64,000 bases of DNA, from assembly GCA_951406725.2 (NCBI GenBank), contig OX597840.1, forward strand, positions 28,830,001-28,894,000. The letters run 5' to 3'. The notes under the pieces are model-generated. The model had not been told where the DNA came from, did no database searches, and worked only from the letters and a program-made list of their open reading frames with translations. Below, in pieces: positions 34,792 to 34,845 of this stretch. Made by a program: the position numbers and the translations under genes. This DNA is from Octopus vulgaris (Eukaryota). Each line of letters begins with the position of its first letter. Position 1 is the stretch's first letter.

Positions 34792-34845
34792 CGTCTCTGA
34801 TGAAGGGATATAATTAATAAATATCCTAGAAACAGCTGTAAGACG
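34792..34845 (+). ncRNA. Minimal type I hammerhead ribozyme
   Basis: cgtct-CTGATGA-agggatat...atatccta-GAAAC-agct-GTA-agacg. Confidence 0.82.

Follow-up and report, generated by a model that had tools for sequence, protein, structure and literature searches.

The closest described systems are the minimal hammerheads (min-HHRs) of Penelope-like elements (PLEs). According to PMC4209133, they have a helix II of 7-8 bp and a helix I of 4-5 bp, the majority of the published ones are solitary, and PLE hammerheads cleave poorly in vitro, dimers included. The descriptor of that study permits an extra N10 and an extra N11, the base before GAAA. Among the 56 rows of its Fig. S3, one has AGAAA (by row order that of Cotesia, going by the order of the text), and the rows of Saccoglossus(2), D. 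willistoni, and Aedes have palindromes of 8-10 nt. Dimer-cleaving variants of PLE hammerheads are attributed to Lunse, Weinberg and Breaker in PMC6765202. The hammerhead of an anole PLE is reported to require protein and to be dispensable for insertion in vitro (PMC11167929), and PMC8557442 describes inverted terminal copies and microsatellite targets for PLEs. PMC3088659 rejected hammerhead candidates with a purine-purine mismatch adjacent to the core, and describes a viroid hammerhead with U4C whose activity is considerably lower in vitro and sufficient in vivo.

The window, i.e., the whole 64-kb stretch of DNA that we analyzed, was proposed in a first-pass annotation to carry two related hammerheads, at 34792 on the forward strand and at 4170 on the reverse strand. 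Both are located as claimed, and the descriptor scan and the predicted fold agree on them. We refer to them as copy A and copy B, and their parts are the following.

34793-34844, + strand: copy A, type I hammerhead (motif, fold, descriptor scan)
34793-34796 and 34841-34844, + strand: helix I of copy A, GTCT and AGAC
34797-34803, + strand: core CTGATGA of copy A, followed by an extra A at 34804
34805-34811 and 34821-34827, + strand: helix II of copy A, with loop II at 34812-34820
34828, + strand: extra A of copy A, followed by GAAA at 34829-34832
34832-34839, + strand: palindrome ACAGCTGT of copy A, followed by A17 at 34840
3' of 34840, + strand: predicted cut of copy A (GUA)
4170-4217, - strand: copy B, type I hammerhead, running from 4217 to 4170 (motif, fold, descriptor scan)
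4217-4214 and 4173-4170, - strand: helix I of copy B, GCCT and AGGC
4213-4207, - strand: core of copy B, followed by an extra G at 4206
4205-4199 and 4193-4187, - strand: helix II of copy B
4186, - strand: extra A of copy B, followed by GAAA at 4185-4182 and the palindrome at 4182-4175
4174/4173 junction, - strand: predicted cut of copy B
4110-4233, - strand: copy B segment with homology to copy A, 73% over 131 columns

The flanks had been described as homologous, and a self-BLAST of the window indeed aligned 4110-4233 with 34897-34774 over these 131 columns with an E of 4e-12. Upstream of this segment of copy B, a weaker likeness to copy A persists by eye. Both copies have the type I core (C3-U4-G5-A6-N7-G8-A9, G12-A13-A14, A15.1-U16.1, and H17), and the 11 fixed core positions compared are all canonical and identical between them. 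The predicted fold places three helices around the core in both copies, with helix I open. All 13 pairs of the monomer are intact in the two copies; one is changed on one side, and one on both sides. The latter is the U-A to C-G swap in helix I, which the earlier reading had rightly picked out, along with the shared core, the shared 8-nt palindrome, and the different loop II (9 nt in copy A and 5 nt in copy B). Helix II has 7 bp in both copies and starts with a G.U pair in copy A and a G-C pair in copy B. The same reading had overlooked the purine before GAAA and that after A9: where helix II meets the core, an unpaired purine stands on each side (A.A in copy A and G.A in copy B). Neither copy would pass the strict criterion of PMC3088659 for the helix II pair adjoining the core. 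We considered this purine-purine mismatch as a novel variant and abandoned the idea because extra bases are already allowed and published in PMC4209133. At the level of the sequence motif, copies A and B are confirmed as real homologous type I hammerheads.

We regard both sites as remnants of pLTRs from two subfamilies within a single high-copy PLE family with a PLE-type type I hammerhead, a reading to which we assign a probability of about 0.8. The features that bear on it, around copy A and elsewhere in the window, are the following.

34706-34899, + strand: sense segment X, with a pyrimidine-rich leader, the hammerhead, and an AT-rich trailer (joints at 34889-34910, contigs with loose ends before 34706)
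34774-34897, + strand: part of segment X homologous to the context of copy B (self-BLAST)
34547-34702, - strand: segment Y, which continues this element in the 3' direction but is inverted here (contig joints, loose ends)
34900-34917, + strand: 18-nt right arm of an inverted repeat whose partner is 34685-34702, entering (TA)n
34477-34532, either strand: (TA)n to the left of the copy A element
34912-34987, either strand: (TA)n to the right of the copy A element
52266-52862, - strand: 3' remnant of a PLE, C-terminal GIY-YIG region with stops (homologues)

Assembled contigs of 4 of 24 runs, with three organism labels, were placed on 34540-34910 at 80% likeness. Thousands of contigs were placed (5768, 4668, 3144, and 371 per run), with depth in all 29 bins, which shows that the repeat of copy A is present in high copy. 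Among the 15 joints listed of a total of 53, ten connect opposite strands between 34635-34704 and 34844-34910. The loose contig ends behind 34702 are the reverse complement of 34870-34899, and those before 34547 are (TA)n. These joints and loose ends give the order of the family as X followed by Y, and in other family copies Y comes after 34899 and terminates in (TA)n. Copy A is a rearranged piece, where Y is inverted, 18 nt of Y are left at 34900-34917, and the whole lies inside (TA)n. The PLE trait of inverted terminal pieces with a bias for microsatellites is thus encountered at copy A; it was not seen at copy B.

Both copies are truncated. Since neither RT nor endonuclease was detected beside copy A or B, we infer from sequence features that the two probably belong to PLEs. 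Pfam revealed no RT or GIY-YIG in the 15 frames analyzed around the two copies and two further hammerheads. One frame upstream of copy B, used as query in a homologue search, gave no match. Searches by tblastn and HMM from 150 PLE proteins of one clade matched only at 52 kb and not beside copies A or B. A few residues upstream of copy B resemble by eye the C-terminus of an endonuclease. A protein remnant at this place was rejected, as Pfam, the homologue search, and the tblastn and HMM searches gave it no support. Five of the five long homologues scanned for the remnant at 52266-52862 carry RVT_1 together with a GIY-YIG at the C-terminus, and its correct frame has no Pfam match. One UniRef match of this part of the search, with 75% identity over 35% of its query, comes from an octopus, a hint in keeping with a cephalopod-like genome. 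This remnant is separate from copies A and B, with no link between them.

The palindromic helix III had been thought to fit a dimeric mode of cleavage, and the predicted cofolds are consistent with this, their minimum being a double hammerhead for both copies. The predicted energy of the copy A cofold is -25.5 kcal/mol, compared with 2 x -8.6 for its monomers, and that of the copy B cofold is -35.5 kcal/mol, compared with 2 x -13.8. Helices I and II are intramolecular in both predictions and helix III is an intermolecular helix of 8 bp. Because it is favoured by the cofold, a double hammerhead cutting 3' of GUA is most likely the working form. In the progenitor RNA, helices I and II would form inside each motif. 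Helix III of the monomer would close a 4-nt loop with just 2 bp, so that two motifs, in tandem pLTRs or in separate molecules, would pair via the 8-nt palindrome and join in a double hammerhead. A cut 3' of GUA would leave a 2',3'-cyclic phosphate and a 5'-OH, and cleavage would probably be slow and protein-assisted. In this reading, the family would cleave and use the dimer. With 30.6 kb between them and on opposite strands, copies A and B cannot pair within a single transcript; these two solitary genomic copies are probably inert now.

The swap in helix I had been presented as evidence of a conserved RNA structure. To weigh it, we simulated neutral change over 15 pairs, at the rate of the flanks (13 changes in 69 aligned bases). 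One or more compensatory changes arose with P = 0.22, so the swap taken alone is weak evidence, and this part of the claim was overstated. Zero broken pairs had P = 0.022, and zero broken of 15 pairs together with 11 of 11 core bases kept had a joint P ~0.002 at the flank rate and 0.05 at half this rate. Given exactly three changes at paired positions, P was 0.016 for all pairs being kept with one double change. The structured positions do not differ significantly from the flanks (Fisher p = 0.16). Of 500 trials in which the pairs were shuffled, 253 attained the observed value, and two sequences allow no more. Hence, the claim of a conserved RNA structure stands modestly, backed by the whole pattern of unbroken pairs and unchanged core and not by the swap. 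Among the thousands of copy A-like contigs, the swapped pair is at less than 4% where readable: T>C at 34794 in runs X1, X2, and X8 (where the rows listed, 40 of 70 difference rows, exhaust the T>C places) and A>G at 34843 in runs X2 and X8. Copies resembling B may escape the 80% likeness cut, hence this frequency is that of A-like contigs.

The identity of the core holds for copies A and B, but it does not extend to the wider family of copy A. At position 34798, the core U4, C makes up 70, 85, 84, and 79% of the depth in the four runs (123, 121, 110, and 36 contigs, counted up to 128), where contig depth is not copy number, variants are unphased, and reference bias would favour U. Position 34828, directly before GAAA, is G in 47-59% of the depth and otherwise A, and the indels of the family concentrate in loop II. 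The extent first given for copy A, 34792-34845, includes one further C-G pair, and this fifth pair of helix I is atypical for the family, with G34845 being C in 72-96% of the depth. Overall, copy A differs from the family majority at no fewer than 13 listed sites, three of which, including 34798, are CpG in the family form. The observed/expected ratio of CpG is 0.44, and in a SINE-like repeat, of which 13 copies were picked by hand, transitions amount to 17-18% at CpG and to 4-5% elsewhere. Considering this evident decay of CpG, the sequences suggest that the canonical U4 of copy A may be a reversion. It is equally possible that copy A stems from an older U4 subfamily; the contigs sampled the subfamily of copy A and not that of copy B. 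Contigs of run X9 were considered as a sign of transcription and set aside, because the RNA nature of this run is a mere guess.

As U4C is the commonest form in the subfamily of copy A, cleavage there was probably weakened, and the subfamily probably spread without strictly requiring it. It is rather doubtful that this subfamily spread from a master with U4C and the purine-purine mismatch that was still cleaving as a palindrome-driven dimer. If it did, it would represent a natural core variant that CUGANGA descriptors cannot see, and matched U4 and C4 subfamilies would make a natural test of the role of cleavage in PLE transposition. A literature search covering few subscription papers returned no report of U4C in an animal repeat and, by title or abstract, no paper on the family of copies A and B, both of which are weak signs of novelty.

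The same observations bear on the most serious alternative, which we find unlikely: that the hammerhead was inherited by descent and already inactive in the master copies of the family, the pairing shared by copies A and B being inherited with no cleavage during the spread. The U4C majority and the similar shares of A and G before GAAA would fit such a history, as would the rates of CpG transitions, which permit the reversion of U4 in copy A, and the lack of a significant difference between structured and flank positions. In addition, mutants of the anole PLE hammerhead still inserted in vitro, according to PMC11167929. What argues against it is the joint probability of about 0.002, at flank rates, of keeping all pairs and core bases. 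Moreover, the natural U4C hammerhead of the viroid works in vivo (PMC3088659), and a PLE hammerhead with an extra base before GAAA has already been published (PMC4209133).

The two sites could also be monomers of a non-LTR retrozyme, a non-coding tandem repeat whose hammerheads would free RNAs of unit length that circularise and return to the genome through a PLE RT. As a non-autonomous PLE derivative, such a retrozyme would overlap in part with the reading as a PLE remnant, and we deem it quite improbable. We found no ORF beside copy A or B, and the unit is short, low in GC, and high in copy number. Solo monomers of retrozymes are described as common and related to pLTRs (bioRxiv 10.64898/2026.07.22.740005), and retrozymes are reported in molluscs (PMC7229834). 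However, neither site has a tandem array of head-to-tail units of 150-450 nt, none of the 15 joints listed among the 53 is head-to-tail while ten are inversions, and the helix sizes match those of min-HHRs and not those of canonical hammerheads, which have 6 bp in helix I and 4 bp in helix II, following the description in PMC4209133.

A domestication by the host, where self-cleaving RNAs would be under selection at both loci, is very improbable. It would fit the perfect core of both copies in the window, which contrasts with the family majority, but CpG decay would account for the U of copy A, the surroundings are rich in repeats, and copy A departs from its family at the sites, at least 13 among those listed, mentioned above.

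We scanned both strands of the 64-kb window for hammerheads with descriptors of a relaxed and a strict class, and used as control 200 dinucleotide shuffles in blocks of 500 nt. The relaxed class had six matches in the window against a shuffle mean of 0.055, and it is the fairer test because the strict class was derived from copies A and B themselves. A hammerhead likeness arising by chance within an ordinary repeat is hardly credible: Rfam has no hammerhead match, either at the gathering score or at E up to 10, and the folding z-scores of -1.26 and -0.90 are unremarkable alone, but the two strict matches compare with none in any of the 200 shuffles, and the palindrome and cleavage triplet are in register with the core and all three helices. 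The 110 weak matches of Rfam are to other families, nearly all of them microRNA models on microsatellites. Pattern scans for family members elsewhere gave 0 and then 2 matches in metagenomes, 15 in viral contigs, and 1 in prokaryote genomes; all 18 were discarded as chance since the remaining motif is absent.

Besides copies A and B, there are four hammerhead matches in the same 64 kb. The one at 31623-31680 (+) belongs to an unrelated family, has a helix III that is palindromic and A.A beside the core, and sits in a 96%-identical inverted repeat with arms at 31307-31399 and 31698-31790. The idea that the inverted arm of this element, at 31629, begins at the cleavage site was dropped because the likeness extends further upstream. 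The match at 34292-34350 (+), 500 nt upstream of copy A, has a helix III of 5 bp and is adjoined by a near-perfect hairpin at 33989-34123, with a doubtful extra core at 34129. On the strand of copy B and 150 nt downstream of it, there is a decayed hammerhead at 4069-3982 (-) that has a further palindrome of 8 nt and whose helix II is long. The last one, at 58463-58388 (-), has a helix II that is very long and, beside the core, an A.C mismatch.

Other repeats were also observed in the window. The SINE-like repeat of ~430 nt is present in at least 13 copies at 78-92% identity (e.g., 8792-9203, 30849-31280, and 54402-54818). Two adjacent long imperfect palindromes at 2644-3074 and 3133-3673, with ~79% arm identity, are possibly foldback elements. 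Around 58.9-59.6 kb (-) and 42-44 kb (-) there are, by eye, what we presume to be pieces of non-LTR retrotransposons resembling AP-endonuclease and RT, for which no family match was obtained. Finally, one frame at 33700-33900 (+) has weak Pfam matches resembling C2H2 zinc fingers (E 0.01-0.2).

Compared with known systems, copies A and B are a further family in the well-described class of PLE hammerheads. Like the min-HHRs of PMC4209133, both are type I, with a helix II of 7 bp and a helix I of 4-5 bp. They have the hallmark extra base after A9 (A in copy A, G in copy B), and the hallmark G10.1-C11.1 is G-C in copy B and G.U in copy A, as these hallmarks are given there. Their palindromic helix III ends in GUA, as in Saccoglossus(2) of the same study. 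Copies A and B combine an extra purine with a long palindrome, which no row among the 56 of Fig. S3 does in its PDF text. The published PLE min-HHRs are, according to this source, mostly solitary like copies A and B, beside which we found no ORF. The variants of Lunse and colleagues, compared here by their citation in PMC6765202, likewise have a palindromic stem III that is weak, and are predicted to cleave as dimers.

The Poseidon element PAc of Anolis has, like copy A, a pLTR-type hammerhead and inserts in AT-rich DNA (PMC11167929). Its cleavage was assayed and found to depend on protein and to be dispensable for insertion in vitro, whereas copies A and B are known from their sequence alone. 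Metazoan non-LTR retrozymes, as described in PMC7229834 and bioRxiv 10.64898/2026.07.22.740005, likewise carry their type I hammerhead in short non-coding repeats with low GC and a high copy number. Unlike them, copies A and B are without tandem arrays, copy A has an inverted structure, and the geometry is that of min-HHRs and not the canonical one.

The majority form of the family of copy A would escape the descriptor of PMC4209133, where CUGANGA is fixed, and genome surveys using such a fixed core can overlook most copies of a family. This U4C majority is the one lead of our analysis able to matter, since it bears on whether PLE hammerheads are needed for transposition or passengers, a matter on which PMC8557442 and PMC11167929 also touch. 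The core substitution is identical to that of the viroid hammerhead described in PMC3088659. There it is a single variant of a viroid, whereas here it is apparently the commonest form in a subfamily of an animal repeat.
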